IMG/VR virus record: IMGVR_UViG_2529293043_000022
Source: a virus
Lineage: Duplodnaviria; Heunggongvirae; Uroviricota; Caudoviricetes
Strand: one strand, 5' to 3'
DNA length: 5,170 nt
The position numbers and the translations under genes were made by a program. This document shows positions 1 to 4,842 of the stretch, one piece after another. The notes beneath the pieces were generated by a model. It was given only the letters and a program-made list of their open reading frames with translations. It was not told where the DNA came from and ran no database searches. How positions within the stretch are numbered: position 1 is the first letter of the stretch; each line of letters opens with the position of its first letter.

Positions 1-623
<623 letters not shown>

Positions 624-626
<3 letters not shown>

Positions 627-1868
627 TTCTGCCATTGCGCAAGATGGTTGCGGTTTTTCTTCATCATTTTCTTCTTCTGTTTCCTGCTTAGCAGACAGTT
701 CGCGGTTAACTTCTTCCAGGATATCTTTTTCCGGTGTATGTCGTGCAGCAGTGAGAGTTTCCTTGCTGGGGTTCTCGTGATCAGTCTCCGTTAAGTAGGC
801 GTTGATATACCCCTGAAGGCGTCCCGGGTAGTGATAAAACTCAGGGTGAGCGCTCCGGATAAGTGCAAAAATAGCGGCGCGGGAATAGTCCAGAATACCC
901 GGGGTTGCGCGAAGTGCTGCGGACCATTCTTTGAACGGACTTTCTCTTTTCAGGACGATTTCTTTTGCGCGACGATAAACGCTGCCCGGAATTTCATAAA
1001 TATTAAAATCCATCGGAAGTGTGGCTGCTGCAATCTCCACATCCAGCGTATCGAAGGTGTGTACTAAATTCGGATTGCGATCGGTTTTGTTCCCGCCACC
1101 GGCATTTGCACCGGAAGCCGTACGGGTGATACGCGAAACACGATTTCCTTTCATCCACTCTTTTGTCAGCAGACCCCGATCAGTGTAGTCAGCGTCCAGG
1201 TATGCCTCGAAAAAAGCAGTTATCAGTCCCAGGTCTGAATTACCGGGATTAGGGAAAACTTTGTCAGTGTCGCGTACCAGTTTGTGAAGGTCGCGAATCT
1301 CCAGCGGGTCGAGCAGCTTTGTTTTGTGAGAAATGGCCAAGGCAGTAACAGCCGGCAGTTCTTCCGCCCGTGCTATATGTAATGCCTGAAGTTCTTCCCG
1401 TGCAACGTGCGTTACTGGTTTTTCGCTGCCGTGTTGCGCAAGCCAGCGAATGGGCAGCTCCTGACCAGAAACCGGCAGGAGCATATTCTCCTCAATCTCC
1501 GTCATGTCTTCGCCGTTGACGTTGGTATTGTCAGTACTGGCTGGTTTCTCCTGCACGGAGGGAGAGGGCGCGATAAATACCATTGTAATGCCATCTTCCC
1601 CGCCTTTTTCGTATCGGTTGCAGAATTCGGTATCAAACACGCCTTCAGGTGGAAGGTCATTCACAACGGGTAAATGGACGCGAACGGGTTTTTTAAAGTC
1701 GTCTTCATCATAATCGTTGTCATCCATTGCGGTAATGCAGCGGGAGATGGCAACAGATAATTTTTTTGCTGTAGTCCAGTAAAAACCACCTTTAATTCCC
1801 AGACGTTTTCTGACTTTGTCATTTTTTGCTTCGCAATATAGCGCAAATTCTTCTTTATCAGTGCTCAT
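624..1868 (-). CDS. Hypothetical protein, 414 aa, family not recognised; possibly 3'-truncated by the IS
   Basis: Long uninterrupted ORF with ATG at 1868..1866 preceded by GAGG with a 7-nt spacer (minus-strand sense TAATGAGGTTTATCAATG). Contains a glycine-rich segment SGANAGGGNKTDRN and an acidic C-terminal tail. No Walker A, RT (YxDD), Fic or HTH motif seen by eye. Confidence 0.8.
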
Positions 1869-1960
1869 TGATAAACCTCATTACAGATTTAAGGGTGAAC
1901 AAATCCCTGCCATTGCTGGCATTTTTAATCCGTTGGTATGGTGTTAATATGGCTGGAGGG

Positions 1961-2149
1961 TTATCCAGCCGGTGTTTCGTTATTCAGGTACAGCGATACT
2001 TTTTTTACCGGGAGGCATTCACCAGAAATTTTTTGCTCGTCTCTTGCCTGGAGGCAGGATTCTTTACTGGCATAAATTCCGGTAATCACATTCTGTGATT
2101 CACCCGTTATAAGAAAAACCGTCATCATCAGTGCAAATGCTGAAGTCAT
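1961..2149 (-). CDS. Small hypothetical protein, 62 aa, hydrophobic N-terminus and two Cys
   Basis: ATG at 2149..2147 preceded by GGAG with a 7-nt spacer; its ATG overlaps the stop of the upstream ORF as ATGA, indicating translational coupling. The N-terminus MTSAFALMMTVFLITG is hydrophobic, suggesting a membrane or secreted small protein. Confidence 0.5.
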   Translation of the reverse strand: MTSAFALMMTVFLITGESQNVITGIYASKESCLQARDEQKISGECLPVKKVSLYLNNETPAG

Positions 2150-2334
2150 TGACGTTCTCCGAAAATACCAAGTTCAAGAAGAGCAATTCGGGAAAGTATG
2201 GAATTATCATTGAGCAGATAAGGCTCATATTTCCTCATGTTAATGGCATCTTCAGTAAACTCCCGGTTACTGAGCAGAACACCAATATCAAAACAACCTT
2301 CAGACGTATTAACGTTTGGTAATAACGTTTCCAT
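2146..2334 (-). CDS. Small hypothetical protein, 62 aa (alternative GTG start at 2439 would give 97 aa)
   Basis: ATG at 2334..2332 preceded by GAGG with an 8-nt spacer (minus-strand sense GAGGACGCGATAATG). Its stop TGA at 2148..2146 overlaps the ATG of the next ORF. The GTG at 2439 used by the ORF track has no Shine-Dalgarno sequence. Confidence 0.45.
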   Translation of the reverse strand: METLLPNVNTSEGCFDIGVLLSNREFTEDAINMRKYEPYLLNDNSILSRIALLELGIFGERQ

Positions 2335-2349
2335 TATCGCGTCCTCAAC

Positions 2350-2370
2350 AATGAATTTTGTGATGCAGTG
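2350..2370. repeat. Left copy of a 21-bp imperfect inverted repeat (19/21 match to the reverse complement of 2481..2501)
   Basis: Plus strand aatgaattttgtgatgcagtg; the reverse complement of 2481..2501 is agtgaattttgtgatgcggtg. Lies 4 nt upstream of the Shine-Dalgarno of the 2334 ORF. Confidence 0.7.
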
Positions 2371-2389
2371 CCTGGTGCCTCCAGGTGAC

Positions 2390-2410
2390 GTTAACCAGTT
2401 AACAATTAAC
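2390..2410. repeat. Three tandem (G)TTAAC motifs at 8-bp period; possible protein-binding site
   Basis: GTTAACcaGTTAACaaTTAAC read directly from the sequence; lies inside the segment bounded by the inverted repeat and next to a CCTGG-tgcct-CCAGG hairpin at 2371..2385. Confidence 0.4.
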
Positions 2411-2480
2411 GCCGGATACAGAGAATCCACCCATAACACTGTTTTTGGTTTTAACTGTTCCGCGTGCGCTTAGCCGCATT

Positions 2481-2501
2481 CACCGCATCACAAAATTCAC
2501 T
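2481..2501. repeat. Right copy of the 21-bp inverted repeat
   Basis: Plus strand caccgcatcacaaaattcact. The pair encloses 110 bp (2371..2480). Confidence 0.7.
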
Positions 2502-2838
2502 TTAAAAAGGGCGGCAGAGCAGCCACGGAGTAAAACTGATACCGCCAAACGTCACCAGAAAATTGATAACAGAGGGCGTTGCAGCGGGGTTGTCACTTAA
2601 GCGTATGGTCAACCTGACAACCCGGTGTCCTCAATGGGGAAGGAATAACCCCGCCATACTTACCGCCGCGCCATTTCGCGGAGTGCCACAACCGGAAGCG
2701 CACGTTCGAAGAAATCTAACGACAAGCCTTCTAAGGGAAAGAGCTTCGCCGTACGCTTTCGCGTTATGCACTGACTTTTCAGGGAAATATCCTTTCAGTA
2801 AACTGTCAGTACCGGATTCTTATCCGTGTCCGGCGCAC

Positions 2839-2872
2839 GACCACACGTGACAGCGTGTTGGTCTCCATTTTT
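2839..2872 (+). terminator. Candidate weak intrinsic terminator or attenuator hairpin on the plus strand
   Basis: Stem gaccacacg / cgtgt(t)ggtc (9 bp with one bulge) and loop tgacag, followed by tccaTTTTT. The T-run is offset by 4 nt from the stem, so this is a weak call. Confidence 0.25.
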
Positions 2873-2898
2873 AACCCAGAACCTCAATGGAGGATAAA

Positions 2899-3108
2899 AT
2901 GCCAAACAAAAAAAGAAATCCGCTTATTGAAAAACAGATTGAATGCCTGGTAAATCAACTCAGGCAATCAGGGTTATTAAAAACTCATTCAGAGTTGAGG
3001 CTCACAGAATCAGCATTCGACGATAAATTAAATAATGTCCTTTATAATGGCATTATTGATTTTAATCGTTCTGTTGGTCGCCGCGGCCCTGCTGGTGTTT
3101 CCTTATAA
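2899..3108 (+). CDS. Small hypothetical protein, 69 aa as read; the C-terminal part looks off-frame (see the 3035..3145 feature)
   Basis: Strong RBS: GGAGG at 2889..2893, a 5-nt spacer, ATG at 2899. The ORF-track start at 2887 lacks a Shine-Dalgarno sequence. The last ~20 residues (GIIDFNRSVGRRGPAGVSL) look like a hydrophobic helix read out of frame. Confidence 0.5.
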   Translation: MPNKKRNPLIEKQIECLVNQLRQSGLLKTHSELRLTESAFDDKLNNVLYNGIIDFNRSVGRRGPAGVSL

Positions 3109-3145
3109 TTACCAGTCAATCCAGAGTGGACCGTGTTCAGCGTAA
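3035..3145 (+). CDS. Alternate-frame small hydrophobic ORF, 36 aa (32 aa from ATG 3047): MSFIMALLILIVLLVAAALLVFPYNYQSIQSGPCSA; either an independent membrane peptide or the displaced C-terminus of the 2899 gene
   Basis: In the +1 frame relative to the 2899 ORF the codons spell one clean transmembrane-like helix. No Shine-Dalgarno precedes ATG 3035 or 3047. It overlaps the 3' end of the convergent 216-aa gene by 37 bp. Confidence 0.3.
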   Translation: MSFIMALLILIVLLVAAALLVFPYNYQSIQSGPCSA

Positions 3146-3759
3146 ATATAACTGTACACATCCAGATTATATTTGTGGTCTGTTAAGAACAGGCCGCAAA
3201 TACATGCCGAAGCTTCCAGTGCAGCGGCTCTGTTACTGAATAACCATGTAGCAACATTCCAGCGTTTTTCTGCATCCCAGTCTTTCTCAAGGCCTGATAC
3301 CATGAAGAAACCGTTAGTGTTGCCATCAAATAATTCTGTTTCCAAATTTTTAAGCAATGCCTGATGGACTCTTGCCAGGTATTCCGCCGGAATTTCGCCA
3401 CGAATTCTGATGAGATTGTCATAAACAAACATGTTCCCCGCATATGGCGATTTTTCTTTCTTGTTTTTTAAACCAGCATCATGAGCAAACTGATCAATTT
3501 CTTCTTCCGTTGGTTTCGTATTGATGTTTTGCGCTGTCGTTTCTGCAATTTTATTTGCCACACTCTCTGAGTCGTGTTTATTTATAGACGCACAGAAATA
3601 CAATCCGGTAAACGCATCGCGCACATTACGAGCCATATTATCAGTGTCTTTTTTCGTTACCGATTCCAATTCAAGTTCGTTCAGACGATGACGAAGTGTG
3701 TGTGCTGCAATCTCCTGGATTGAAGGAGGTAAATCTTTAAATTCCATCGTCAACCTCAT
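3109..3759 (-). CDS. Hypothetical protein, 216 aa (212 aa if it starts at ATG 3747), family not recognised
   Basis: ATG at 3759..3757 overlaps the TGA of the upstream small ORF (minus-strand sense TGATG), indicating translational coupling. An alternative ATG at 3747..3745 is preceded by GAGG with a 6-nt spacer. Soluble-looking, with no motif recognised by eye. Confidence 0.75.
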   Translation of the reverse strand: MRLTMEFKDLPPSIQEIAAHTLRHRLNELELESVTKKDTDNMARNVRDAFTGLYFCASINKHDSESVANKIAETTAQNINTKPTEEEIDQFAHDAGLKNKKEKSPYAGNMFVYDNLIRIRGEIPAEYLARVHQALLKNLETELFDGNTNGFFMVSGLEKDWDAEKRWNVATWLFSNRAAALEASACICGLFLTDHKYNLDVYSYIYAEHGPLWIDW

Positions 3760-3992
3760 CAGTCAGTGTTTCTGGCTAACCAGCGACGCGCGCCAGCTTC
3801 AGTTTTAAACGTTTTGCTTTTGGTATACGTCATCGCGGTGAACGTACCGTCCTGGTTGGGGAACACGCCACATACCAGAGATTCGTTGTTGCCAAGATTG
3901 AGCGTATCCATGTTGACCTCATTTCCCCTTAACGCCGGGGTAGCGGAACAAAAACCTGCTGCATAGTTATTAAAGTTGAACCCTGCCGTCAT
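3759..3992 (-). CDS. Small protein, 77 aa from ATG 3992 or more likely 50 aa from ATG 3911; it has the size and position of the small ORFs found next to cI-like repressors in lambdoid prophages
   Basis: The internal ATG at 3911..3909 has the better RBS (minus-strand sense GAGGTCAACATG); ATG 3992 has GAGG with a 9-nt spacer. From memory only, the 50-aa form resembles Rac-prophage-type small proteins (YdaF/YdaG-like); this is unverified. Confidence 0.6.
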   Translation of the reverse strand: MTAGFNFNNYAAGFCSATPALRGNEVNMDTLNLGNNESLVCGVFPNQDGTFTAMTYTKSKTFKTEAGARRWLARNTD

Positions 3993-4090
3993 GTTCTTAC
4001 GCCTCGGGCTGGCTACTTAACCCCTGACCACTGCCTGGTAACTCGAAGTATTGCCCTGCATTCTGTGGGGCGGGGTGAGGGAATGAATGA

Positions 4091-4139
4091 AGTTTAGAAA
4101 AACGAACATTTAAGGTCAATGTTTTTTTATCAAAACATT
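4091..4139 (-). promoter_or_regulatory. Candidate sigma70 promoter for the 50/77-aa plus 216-aa operon, with an operator-like palindrome
   Basis: Minus-strand sense -35 TTGACC (4119..4114), 17-bp spacer, -10 TAAACT (4096..4091). The palindrome AATGTTTT-tttatc-AAAACATT (4118..4139) overlaps the -35 and shares the core GTTTT-N6-AAAAC with the site at 4843..4858 in the cI/cro intergenic region. Confidence 0.4.
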
Positions 4140-4203
4140 TTAAGCAGGCAGCTGTTACGCCATCACTACGATGGCATACAGTTAATCAAATAGATGAGGT
4201 TGG

Positions 4204-4842
4204 TTAAATATCTTGTTGAATTTTAAAGCATACTCCCAATATGCAAGATAGATCATCCAGCATAATTGAAGGGTAGCGAGGATTCGTGGGGACTAAAAGA
4301 ATATCCGGCCCTTCTATCTCCAGTTTGCGAATGACAGGCGTTGTGGTCCCTTTGGGTAAGGCAAGGACAATATTTCCTGGTTGTACGATTCGATCGGGAT
4401 CAACAAAAACTGTTGAACCATTTGGGATGGAAACTCCACCACCAGATGTCGACATACTGTCACTCTCTAGAACAACAGCAAAGGTATTGGCCGGGATTTC
4501 TCCGACAAGCTGCACACAAGAGGTTATTGAGGAATTTTTCATATAATCACTCCAGCTTGCTGCCTGCTGAAGTGATAGTAGCGGAACCGTTTTTATCGGC
4601 GGTAAAGATAGATCAAGCGAATCACCTGTATTTAACTCTCCTCCATTAAGAAGCCAATTTTCGTTTACTTTCAATATCTTTGCCAGTGAACTTATGTAAC
4701 GCGAGGACGGCGCTCCTCCACCGTTCATCCATTGACTTACGGAGCCTTTTGATGCGCCAGTGGCATTGACAAGGTCTTTGCCTTTCAAGTTTAGCGCATG
4801 CATACGTTGGGTTATGCGTTCAGATATTGTTTGCTTGTTCAT
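4204..4842 (-). CDS. cI: Phage CI-like repressor, 212 aa (N-terminal HTH_XRE plus C-terminal S24 LexA-type autopeptidase domain)
   Basis: The HTH region (...LVNATGASKGSVSQWMNGG...) and the S24 Ser/Lys dyad (Ser129 in ESDSM, Lys173 in VIRKL, 44 aa apart) match lambda CI and P22 C2 architecture. It is divergent from a Cro-like gene. No Shine-Dalgarno upstream; a -10-like TAAAAT sits 6 nt upstream of the ATG, so the transcript may be leaderless as with lambda PRM. Confidence 0.9.
   Translation of the reverse strand: MNKQTISERITQRMHALNLKGKDLVNATGASKGSVSQWMNGGGAPSSRYISSLAKILKVNENWLLNGGELNTGDSLDLSLPPIKTVPLLSLQQAASWSDYMKNSSITSCVQLVGEIPANTFAVVLESDSMSTSGGGVSIPNGSTVFVDPDRIVQPGNIVLALPKGTTTPVIRKLEIEGPDILLVPTNPRYPSIMLDDLSCILGVCFKIQQDI

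Follow-up and report, generated by a model that had tools for sequence, protein, structure and literature searches.

The DicF locus

The stretch of DNA which was analysed (5,170 nucleotides (nt), IMG/VR record IMGVR_UViG_2529293043_000022; in the following the window) contains between positions 2440 and 2890 an interval for which a preliminary description had proposed a plus-strand noncoding RNA or a structured leader. The interval carries the gene for the small RNA (sRNA) DicF, on the minus strand, together with a folded domain and base-paired segments. The full window showed 100% identity to chromosomes of Escherichia coli O157:H7 (strains TR01 and Z1812), and stretches of its part 2100..3200 were present in 4734 of 5426 complete E. 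coli genomes, mostly in multiple copies. By its gene content, the source locus is the early-left region of a lambdoid prophage, read on the minus strand. The features in and next to the interval are:

2509..2561, minus strand: DicF, 53-nt form, from UUUCUGG (2561) to CCC (2509) (Rfam RF00039; alignment with K-12)
2504..2546, minus strand: DicF terminator, hairpin GGCGGUA..UGCCGCC (2546..2510) followed by UUUUU (2508..2504) (Rfam structure line)
2562..2577, minus strand: AU-rich linker GCCCUCUGUUAUCAAU with the putative RNase E site for the DicF 5' end, identical to K-12
2570..2705, minus strand: structured 5' domain of pre-DicF, about 135 nt (covariance model R1, 157 bits)
2688..2767, minus strand: Stem L, 21 base pairs (bp) with small internal loops, 2767-2744 with 2711-2688 (helices of the minimum free energy (MFE) structure)
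2768..2838, minus strand: two more predicted leader hairpins, 2812-2768 (ACUGACAG..CUGAAAAGUCAGU) and 2826-2813 (CCGGA..UCCGG), near-identical to K-12
2352..2499, minus strand: DicF-dicB spacer, STnc100-like, closed by a 19-bp duplex 2499-2481/2370-2352 (inverted repeat I1, 95% complementary)
2334..2146, minus strand: dicB, 62 amino acids (aa), the next gene downstream of DicF (Pfam DicB, 125.5 bits, profile positions 1-62 of 62)

Rfam family RF00039 (DicF) was matched at 2560..2509 of the minus strand with 75 bits, compared with a gathering score of 48 (E = 8e-16; model positions 1-52 of 52), and 52 of the 53 positions were identical to DicF of E. coli K-12. The covariance score, a terminator on the same strand (the terminator scan called a minus-strand stem 2526..2511, then CCTTTTTAAA) and a site upstream of dicB in a lambdoid early-left operon were all found, and PGAP names the gene 2334..2146 dicB in the identical O157:H7 record. 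The K-12 prophage Qin showed 93.2% identity over 2230..2839 of the window; this alignment takes in dicB, dicF and about 280 nt upstream, and the ydfC stop codon is about 60 nt beyond its end. The sequence given in a published supplementary figure (Fig. S1) for the 190-nt K-12 region represents the same region as here. Identity and strand of DicF, synteny with dicB and homology to K-12 are thus direct observations. No Rfam family was matched on the plus strand of the window (E <= 1).

The suggestion of a phage sRNA was therefore right as to the presence of an sRNA and wrong as to the strand, since DicF, its terminator and the covarying helices described below are all on the minus strand. Heavy structure, which had also been noticed, was borne out: the whole region folded better than shuffled sequences on both strands (z = -3.17 for the minus strand and -2.08 for the plus strand). 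It is highly probable that 2440..2890, which encodes DicF, serves as the untranslated leader between cistrons in an early-left operon of the dicBF type, located on the minus strand of a lambdoid prophage of O157:H7. The DicF locus itself is already known, and this core finding is an ordinary one, because it consists of a known sRNA locus on the strand opposite to the one proposed. Other genes and signals of the window are:

4842..4204, minus strand: S24/HTH repressor gene (Pfam/PHROGs and PGAP annotation)
4091..4119, minus strand: promoter-like TTGACC-17-TAAACT between the repressor and ydfA-like genes (consensus match only)
3992..3759, minus strand: DUF1391/ydfA-like gene (Pfam/PHROGs and PGAP annotation)
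3759..3109, minus strand: gene for 216 aa, phrog_2151 (PHROGs)
2899..3108, plus strand: gene for 69 aa, phrog_4274 (E = 1e-51), annotated as hypothetical protein, no Pfam match
2149..1961, minus strand: DUF1482/ydfD-like gene, downstream of dicB
624..1868, minus strand: ORF (open reading frame) of 414 aa with partial exonuclease VIII/RecE only, adjoining the IS3-family fragment
1..584, plus strand: IS3-family transposase fragment (rve domains), adjoining the truncated exonuclease VIII gene

The site 4119..4091 was the sole promoter-like site which the promoter scan found on the minus strand within 1900..4200; it is a candidate for the early-left (dicBp/PL-type) operon promoter, at the same place as dicBp in K-12. 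In comparison with dicBF of K-12 Qin, the locus has the same sRNA, terminator, downstream dicB and ydfD-like genes and upstream ydfA-like gene, with an untranslated region (UTR) of 93% identity, and its duplexes are situated where RNase III-dependent ends would be expected. Differences are the replacement of ydfB and ydfC by the 216-aa phrog_2151 gene and the opposite-strand 69-aa phrog_4274 gene, a repressor of the S24 (LexA/CI-like) type instead of DicA, a break in homology at 2839, and a divergent C-terminal half of DicB. The N-terminal 33 residues or so of DicB are common to both proteins; the C-terminal ends read ..MRKYEPYLLNDNSILSRIALLELGIFGERQ in the window and ..KRKQERELLNKICIVSMLARLRLMPKGCAQ in K-12, and the Pfam DicB profile still gave 125 bits. 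As a separate observation, the Aeromonas phage AP1 (MT713136.1, 254 kb) contains at 249906..250037 a segment of 132 bp with 98.5% identity to the E. coli dicF-dicB spacer, possibly due to assembly contamination or recent transfer.

Fold and spread of the 5' domain

Directly 5' of DicF, between Stem L and the RNase E site, is the structured 5' domain. The following elements, all on the minus strand, were obtained from comparative analysis:

2692-2686 / 2584-2578, minus strand: helix Pc
2681-2677 / 2670-2666, minus strand: helix P0
2665-2662 / 2626-2623, minus strand: helix P1b
2652-2649 / 2639-2636, minus strand: helix P2
2622-2615 / 2595-2588, minus strand: helix P3
2659-2654 / 2608-2603, minus strand: pseudoknot, between a junction strand and the P3 loop (2608-2603)

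Two GC-rich stems at 2587..2623 and 2666..2681 had been pointed out earlier; they are present, are kept across lineages, and correspond to P3 and P0. The former contains an exact 9-nt inverted repeat (I5; GGGTTGTCA/TGACAACCC at 2587-2595/2615-2623), with G2623-C2587 as an alternative ninth pair of P3, which excludes the pair C2665-G2623 of P1b; for the latter, CCGCG..CGCGG can be seen directly in the sequence. The P3 stem covaries across lineages.

Covariation was evaluated with a MAFFT alignment of 29 sequences (A3) and a model-based alignment of 79 sequences (A5), using as controls pairing partners slid by 1-3 columns and shuffles (n = 500). In A5, standard pairs made up 96.7% of the cells, compared with 35-59% in the slid controls, and 12 pairs were altered on both sides, compared with 1-2. 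None of the 500 shuffles reached the observed A5 pairing values, a count which overstates significance, because the aligned sequences are related; results with A3 were similar. P1b (100% paired) and the pseudoknot (99.3%), neither of which had been included in the model behind A5, each showed one covarying pair (UA/CG/UG). RNAalifold, when applied to the unfitted alignment A3, independently found P0, P1b, P2, P3 and part of Pc. These data support a four-way junction (Pc, P0, P1b-P2 and P3) with a pseudoknot. G-U pairs were frequent when read in the minus sense, such as UG:40 and GU:47 at two Pc pairs, and the fold is assigned to the minus strand, since these pairs would be A-C mismatches on the plus strand. 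A covariation analysis of homologous regions, which had been recommended as a check, thus gave helices conserved with compensatory changes, on the minus strand.

An extension of the pseudoknot by pairing UAAG with CUUA was rejected, as it is lost in lineages having CCUG or CCUA. In two rows of A3 (L069 and L082; related loci carry L numbers), paired changes were noticed near GUGG(C/U)A and AUGGC (columns 26-28 and 57-58), in one sequence each: L069 has G to A at both sites, and L082 has A to C plus G to A, which gives a perfect GUCAU/AUGAC complement, hinting, from these two single sequences, at an alternative pairing in competition with the pseudoknot. Loop nucleotides of the domain are invariant from phage P1 through Serratia and Erwinia. 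The domain is not covered by any Rfam family (E <= 1 on the window; E <= 0.1 on ten related loci). Neither ARAGORN (0 genes) nor Rfam found a tRNA or tmRNA in the window, and the four-way junction is considered cloverleaf-like in topology only, since the ARAGORN scan was empty.

BLAST and pattern scans showed that the 5' domain is far more widely conserved than DicF. It was found in many E. coli prophages, in Stx2c and cdtI phages and Salmonella phage F1055, in P1 and P7 within the leader preceding their C1-controlled ban operon (part of it bears in GenBank the label 'dicF-like region' only), and in genomes of Citrobacter, Serratia symbiotica, Erwinia tracheiphila, Trabulsiella, Izhakiella, E. 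albertii and Shigella. Eight matches in genome contigs (Acidobacteriota, Moorella, Verrucomicrobiota and others) were discarded as chance pattern matches. In all copies with enough flanking sequence (77 of 77), a hairpin with a U-run follows about 30-110 nt after the domain; the 'seed' sequences between domain and terminator fall into 15 clusters, with canonical DicF as one of them. In the lineages outside Escherichia (L154, L155, L152, L139 and L157), the sRNA has a long terminator hairpin containing an AGGAG similar to a Shine-Dalgarno sequence, and after 8-10 nt AUG (or GUG) UUCUAC/UUCUGC follows within the terminator loop, which suggests a tiny ORF or a translation-coupled element.

The strands GUUGUGG and CCACAAC of the closing helix are kept in relatives which do not possess the core of the domain. 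Empty sites were seen in Rac-SA53 (CGGUUGU-AAAUA-ACGAC) and phiSTEC1589-Stx1c (CGGUUGUG-AAUA-ACAAC), and the core is replaced by an STnc100-like sequence in Salmonella phage 118970_sal3 and by a different sequence in Stx2a_1447 (polymorphic sites: L010 ~1648..1680, L007 ~1468..1500, L158 2049..2190, L160 2095..2260). Since the flanks persist where the core is absent or replaced, the core behaves as an exchangeable cassette.

Proposed processing of pre-DicF and possible roles of the domain

In K-12, DicF is excised from the polycistronic dicBp transcript (PMC10448788, PMC5069750, PMC9438474). RNase III produces the 5' end of a 190-nt species (PMC10448788), the 5' end of the 53-nt form depends on RNase E (PMC10448788; PMC5069750), and the 3' end is due to intrinsic termination or to an RNase III cut of read-through RNA, which yields a 72-nt form (PMC5069750; PMC9438474). 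Cleavage sites were placed in the window by transferring the K-12 lengths (190, 72 and 53 nt). The 5' end of the 190-nt pre-DicF would thereby be at about 2698, inside the 9-bp segment 2704-2696 of Stem L, and the 3' end of the 72-nt form at about 2490, in the 5' arm of the 19-bp duplex.

Stem L is a probable RNase III substrate. It was predicted in each of the 11 lineages studied, and its two strands differ between lineages in a compensating manner (AGCGCA/UGCGCU in one group of lineages, AGAGCA/UGCUCU in the other). Its 3' strand overlaps the 5' strand of helix Pc; Pc can be formed only after Stem L has been opened or cut, because the 5' strand of Pc coincides with the last part of that 3' strand. 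The segment UGCUCUYU just 5' of the domain resembles boxA, a reading which was rejected as the main explanation, since this segment forms the 3' side of Stem L and shows covariation with the strand it pairs with. The hairpins 2826-2813 and 2812-2768 are inside a conserved motif, GUGCGCCGGACACGG.UAAG.AUCCGG, which is common to the window, phiP27, TL-2011c and K-12.

Downstream of DicF, the 19-bp duplex 2499-2481/2370-2352, present as an inverted repeat, is the probable RNase III site for the 3' end of the 72-nt form. The DicF-dicB spacer folded with z = -4.82, its 3' limit lying just before the ribosome-binding site (RBS) of dicB. The family STnc100 (RF02076) aligned over its whole model at 2511..2302 (minus strand) with 34.7 bits; the spacer was not filed as a member, because the gathering score of 47 was not reached. 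With STnc100 and its relative PasD it has the closing helix and the CCUGGAGGCACCAGG hairpin in common, and it differs in being a domain of an mRNA leader, whereas STnc100 is a stand-alone sRNA. Such STnc100-like domains are located directly before division-inhibitor genes of the dicB, kilR and tciA type in several phages (31-44 bits, always below 47; window 2302..2511 (minus strand), L007 1534..1723, L003 3842..3961, L011 1501..1621). A preprint on Pas sRNAs treats sRNAs of the late region and was set aside as irrelevant here except for the wide spread of STnc100. In lineages from Salmonella, Erwinia and Izhakiella, hairpins similar to a tRNA T-arm (CUGGUUCGAUUCCAG, GUCCGUUCAAUUCGGAC) occur in an insert within the RNase III duplex (L157 ~1990..2040, L154 ~4440..4520, L155 ~2280..2350); part of it matches a stretch labelled tRNA-Arg in Salmonella phage SPC32H.

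RNase III sites in phage early transcripts (lambda N leader, T7 early region) are long imperfect duplexes of about 20 bp, which separate functional units. The duplexes described here are of the same kind, about 20 bp, imperfect and in a polycistronic early transcript, but they flank an sRNA and a folded domain, and the 3' strand of the upstream one doubles as a strand of the closing helix.

The sequence of events, as far as it can be transferred by homology from the K-12 experiments, could be as follows. Transcription would start at a repressor-controlled PL-like promoter near 4091-4119, cross the ydfA-like and 216-aa genes, run antisense to the small plus-strand gene and enter the leader. There the 21-bp duplex (2767-2744 with 2711-2688) would form, and an RNase III cut near 2698 would yield a pre-DicF of about 190 nt, consisting of the folded domain of about 135 nt, the short AU-rich linker and DicF. 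A cut of the linker by RNase E at 2562/2561, together with a 3' end set by the terminator hairpin 2546-2510 and its U-tract, would produce the 53-nt DicF; from read-through RNA, cleavage by RNase III in the 19-bp duplex 2499-2481/2370-2352 would give the 72-nt DicF and dicB mRNA. With Hfq, DicF would then repress ftsZ, xylR, pykA and manX, and in enterohaemorrhagic E. coli (EHEC) activate pchA. As to the role of the 5' domain, we tentatively favour that of a folded 5' body, which would stabilise the precursor and present the linker for 5'-monophosphate-dependent RNase E after RNase III has freed the closing helix.

Several points speak against this picture. The opposite-strand gene 2899..3108, which is missing in K-12, lies between promoter and DicF and could lower the transcription reaching DicF. 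The prophage is degraded on the exonuclease VIII side, since an IS3-family transposase fragment adjoins the truncated exonuclease VIII gene, and the cleavage positions are the outcome of length arithmetic from K-12 data. P0 is without compensatory change; it is kept as probable, not proven, because its changes are only one-sided or wobble changes, with some breaks. The 5' domain, when folded as a single sequence, did not surpass shuffles in its MFE (z = +0.47), and the structure predicted in this way departs from the comparative one; the structure of the domain is therefore drawn from comparative evidence only. Finally, in Rac-SA53 and phiSTEC1589-Stx1c, where the core is absent, the same duplex is nevertheless followed by a DicF-like sRNA. 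The domain is thus not required in principle for such an sRNA, and this weakens its role as a processing scaffold.

The domain could instead be an autonomous cargo RNA of about 137 nt, freed by the RNase III and RNase E cuts and acting in trans, e.g., as a decoy or binder of a host factor, with the DicF-type sRNAs merely in the same transcription unit. The cassette-like site would agree with this, where between conserved flanks (GUUGUGG..CCACAAC) the core is absent, or is this domain, an STnc100-like sequence or another one; so would the invariant loop nucleotides, the four-way junction with its pseudoknot between loop and strand, and a stretch with Hfq enrichment situated upstream of dicF in K-12. 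However, there is no report of such an RNA species, to which the published Northern probes, being directed to DicF, are blind (PMC10448788); no target or partner can be deduced from the sequence, and ARAGORN found nothing tRNA-like. This explanation appears rather doubtful. About equally doubtful is a broader interpretation, namely that the domain represents an undescribed family of structured phage RNAs with a function of its own (read-through control of toxic genes, or action in trans or as a decoy) beyond that of a precursor sequence. Its members would be exchangeable cassettes between GUUGUGG and CCACAAC in early operons of temperate enterobacterial phages, with Escherichia, Shigella, Salmonella, Citrobacter, Serratia, Erwinia, Trabulsiella and Izhakiella as host genera, and would always be coupled to a terminator-ended sRNA with a lineage-specific seed, DicF being one of at least ten.

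A role of the domain as a cis-acting element for read-through of DicF-type and later terminators, either similar to put of phage HK022 or as the sensing part of an attenuator which decides between 'sRNA only' and 'sRNA plus dicB/kil/ban', is unlikely in either version. It would fit the terminator-like hairpin found after every copy with enough flank, and the position of the domain in P1 and P7, where the C1-controlled ban promoter immediately precedes it and a terminator, tRNA genes and ban follow. In cdtI, Stx2c-type and F1055 phages the domain is the first element after the repressor gene, with no N annotated, and two relatives of N type or Rac type are without the domain; the correlation with absence of N is, however, based on a handful of annotated phages. 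Like put, the domain is a structured RNA in early operons of N-less temperate phages, promoter-proximal in several lineages and before terminators. The put RNA acts as a processive antiterminator, by rendering RNA polymerase resistant to terminators via the zinc-binding domain of beta'. Unlike put, which has about 70 nt, two stem-loops and copies after both PL and PR, it is a multi-helix junction of about 135 nt; identity with put was rejected, as model R1 had no match in the HK022 immunity region (22000..31000; E <= 10). A second copy on the PR side was not found, with one R1 match per locus, including the loci with cro and PR-proximal sequence (L159, L157 and L005). A riboswitch-style antiterminator is likewise considered unlikely, since by inspection no upstream segment was seen to remain complementary to the varying 5' strands of the terminators across lineages.

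The antisense RNAs C4 and IsrK (P1/P7, Gifsy) are likewise phage regulatory RNAs cut from longer precursors, and P1 carries both kinds of element; they differ in that Rfam showed no match to them in sequence or structure in the window. C4 is matured by RNase P. In the locus of a Stx2c phage (L004), separate Rfam matches to C4 and isrK occur elsewhere in the locus.

The plus strand, coding potential and meaning of the locus

The gene at 2899..3108 is placed between the upstream minus-strand genes and the DicF leader. As had been noted, it is preceded by an RBS, GGAGG at 2889-2893, 5 nt ahead of the ATG at 2899. Between this RBS and the leader is the following feature:

2839..2872, strand not assigned: bulged hairpin GACCACACG-TGACAG-CGTGTTGGTC, then TCCATTTTT (fold; boundary of homology with K-12 Qin)

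It had been taken for a terminator-like hairpin with T-tract. Hairpin and T-run exist; the stem is, however, a bulged one of 9 bp, which the terminator scan did not call, its statistics are marginal, and the T-run is not conserved. Homology with K-12 Qin breaks at 2839. The segment 2811..2901 has a match in phiP27; hairpins and RBS are the same there, the small ORF behind them is a different one, and the T-run is shortened; in K-12, TL-2011c and phiSTEC1589 the T-run is absent. At the position of 2839..2863, K-12 and phiSTEC1589 carry another hairpin (CUCCAC..GUGGAG) and TL-2011c a third one, all of which then lead into the motif with UAAG and AUCCGG described above. The presence of different hairpins without a T-run at the same place in relatives favours a minus-strand leader element or a mosaic junction at 2839..2863 rather than a plus-strand terminator.

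That the region encodes a plus-strand noncoding RNA or an attenuating leader of the gene at 2899, starting in 2450..2830 and ending or being attenuated at 2839..2872, is very unlikely. In its favour, the plus-strand form of the hairpin 2839..2863 has a slightly lower energy (-14.3 kcal/mol, z = -1.9) than the minus-strand form (-12.2 kcal/mol, z = 0.13), and 2811..2901 is conserved in phiP27 before a different small plus-sense ORF, in the manner of a portable 5' region. Against it, 12 of 200 shuffles folded as well as the plus-strand hairpin. A sigma-70 promoter of acceptable quality for the gene was not detected in the promoter scan, whose only plus-strand matches were 2399..2426 and 2871..2900, the latter with its -10 overlapping the ATG. 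Together with the lack of Rfam matches on the plus strand, the loss of the T-run in relatives and the G-U pairs of the covarying helices, all of them workable only on the minus strand, this speaks against the plus-strand explanation. The notion of a cis-acting leader or attenuator for the gene at 2899 has to be abandoned, since the region belongs to the minus-strand operon (ydfA-like ... DicF, dicB, ydfD-like); only its last 90 bp or so (2811..2901), a cassette shared by O157 and phiP27, could be a plus-strand leader.

Another ORF, of 36 aa and strongly hydrophobic (MSFIMALLILIVLLVAAALLVFPYNYQSIQSGPCSA), is present at 3035..3145 of the plus strand, without Shine-Dalgarno sequence and without Pfam or PHROG match. 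It overlaps, in another frame, the odd C-terminus of the 69-aa gene (..GRRGPAGVSL) and the 3' end of the convergent 216-aa gene, and could be a small membrane peptide, a frameshift product or a chance occurrence.

The ORF list contains for the interval 2440..2890:

2445..2600, plus strand: ORF of 51 aa with TTG start
2563..2850, plus strand: ORF of 95 aa with TTG start
within 2440..2890, minus strand: three ORFs of 36-46 aa

The impression that there is no convincing ORF was confirmed: those present are short or start with TTG, none had a match in Pfam or PHROGs, and none is conserved over 14 lineages on either strand, the longest ORF across the homologous stretch varying from 22 to 190 aa, with differing frame and strand. 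A frameshifted pseudogene covering the region, for which the 95-aa ORF and its K-12 counterpart of 111 aa could be adduced, is extremely improbable, given that the ORFs are without family matches, that the frame is lost in K-12 after about 48 residues of the alignment because of non-triplet indels, that RNA helices persist with compensatory changes where no common ORF does, and that the matching K-12 stretch is a UTR which was studied experimentally (PMC5069750).

For annotation, there is a gain, as RefSeq-style gene tables leave bare a gap of 560 bp, which holds one copy of DicF. In the accessible literature, no published description of the 5' domain was found, and an earlier account of its conservation is possible; the domain is possibly undescribed, and a moderately interesting by-product of this analysis. 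Homologues of dicF in other genomes were reportedly treated by Faubladier and Bouche in 1994, and the P1 genome of Lobocka (2004) is said to be the source of the label 'dicF-like region'.

DicF would appear to belong, as the one known best, to a set of modular phage sRNAs with a common pseudoknotted 5' domain, two flanking RNase III duplexes and differing seeds, and anchoring searches on the 5' domain should provide a route to new ones. DicF is known to affect cell division, metabolism and, in EHEC, expression of the type 3 secretion system via pchA (PMC9438474). The 5' domain may be the reason for an abundant and stable 190-nt species, and it is a candidate for a level at which toxic early genes (dicB, kil, tciA and ban) are controlled.

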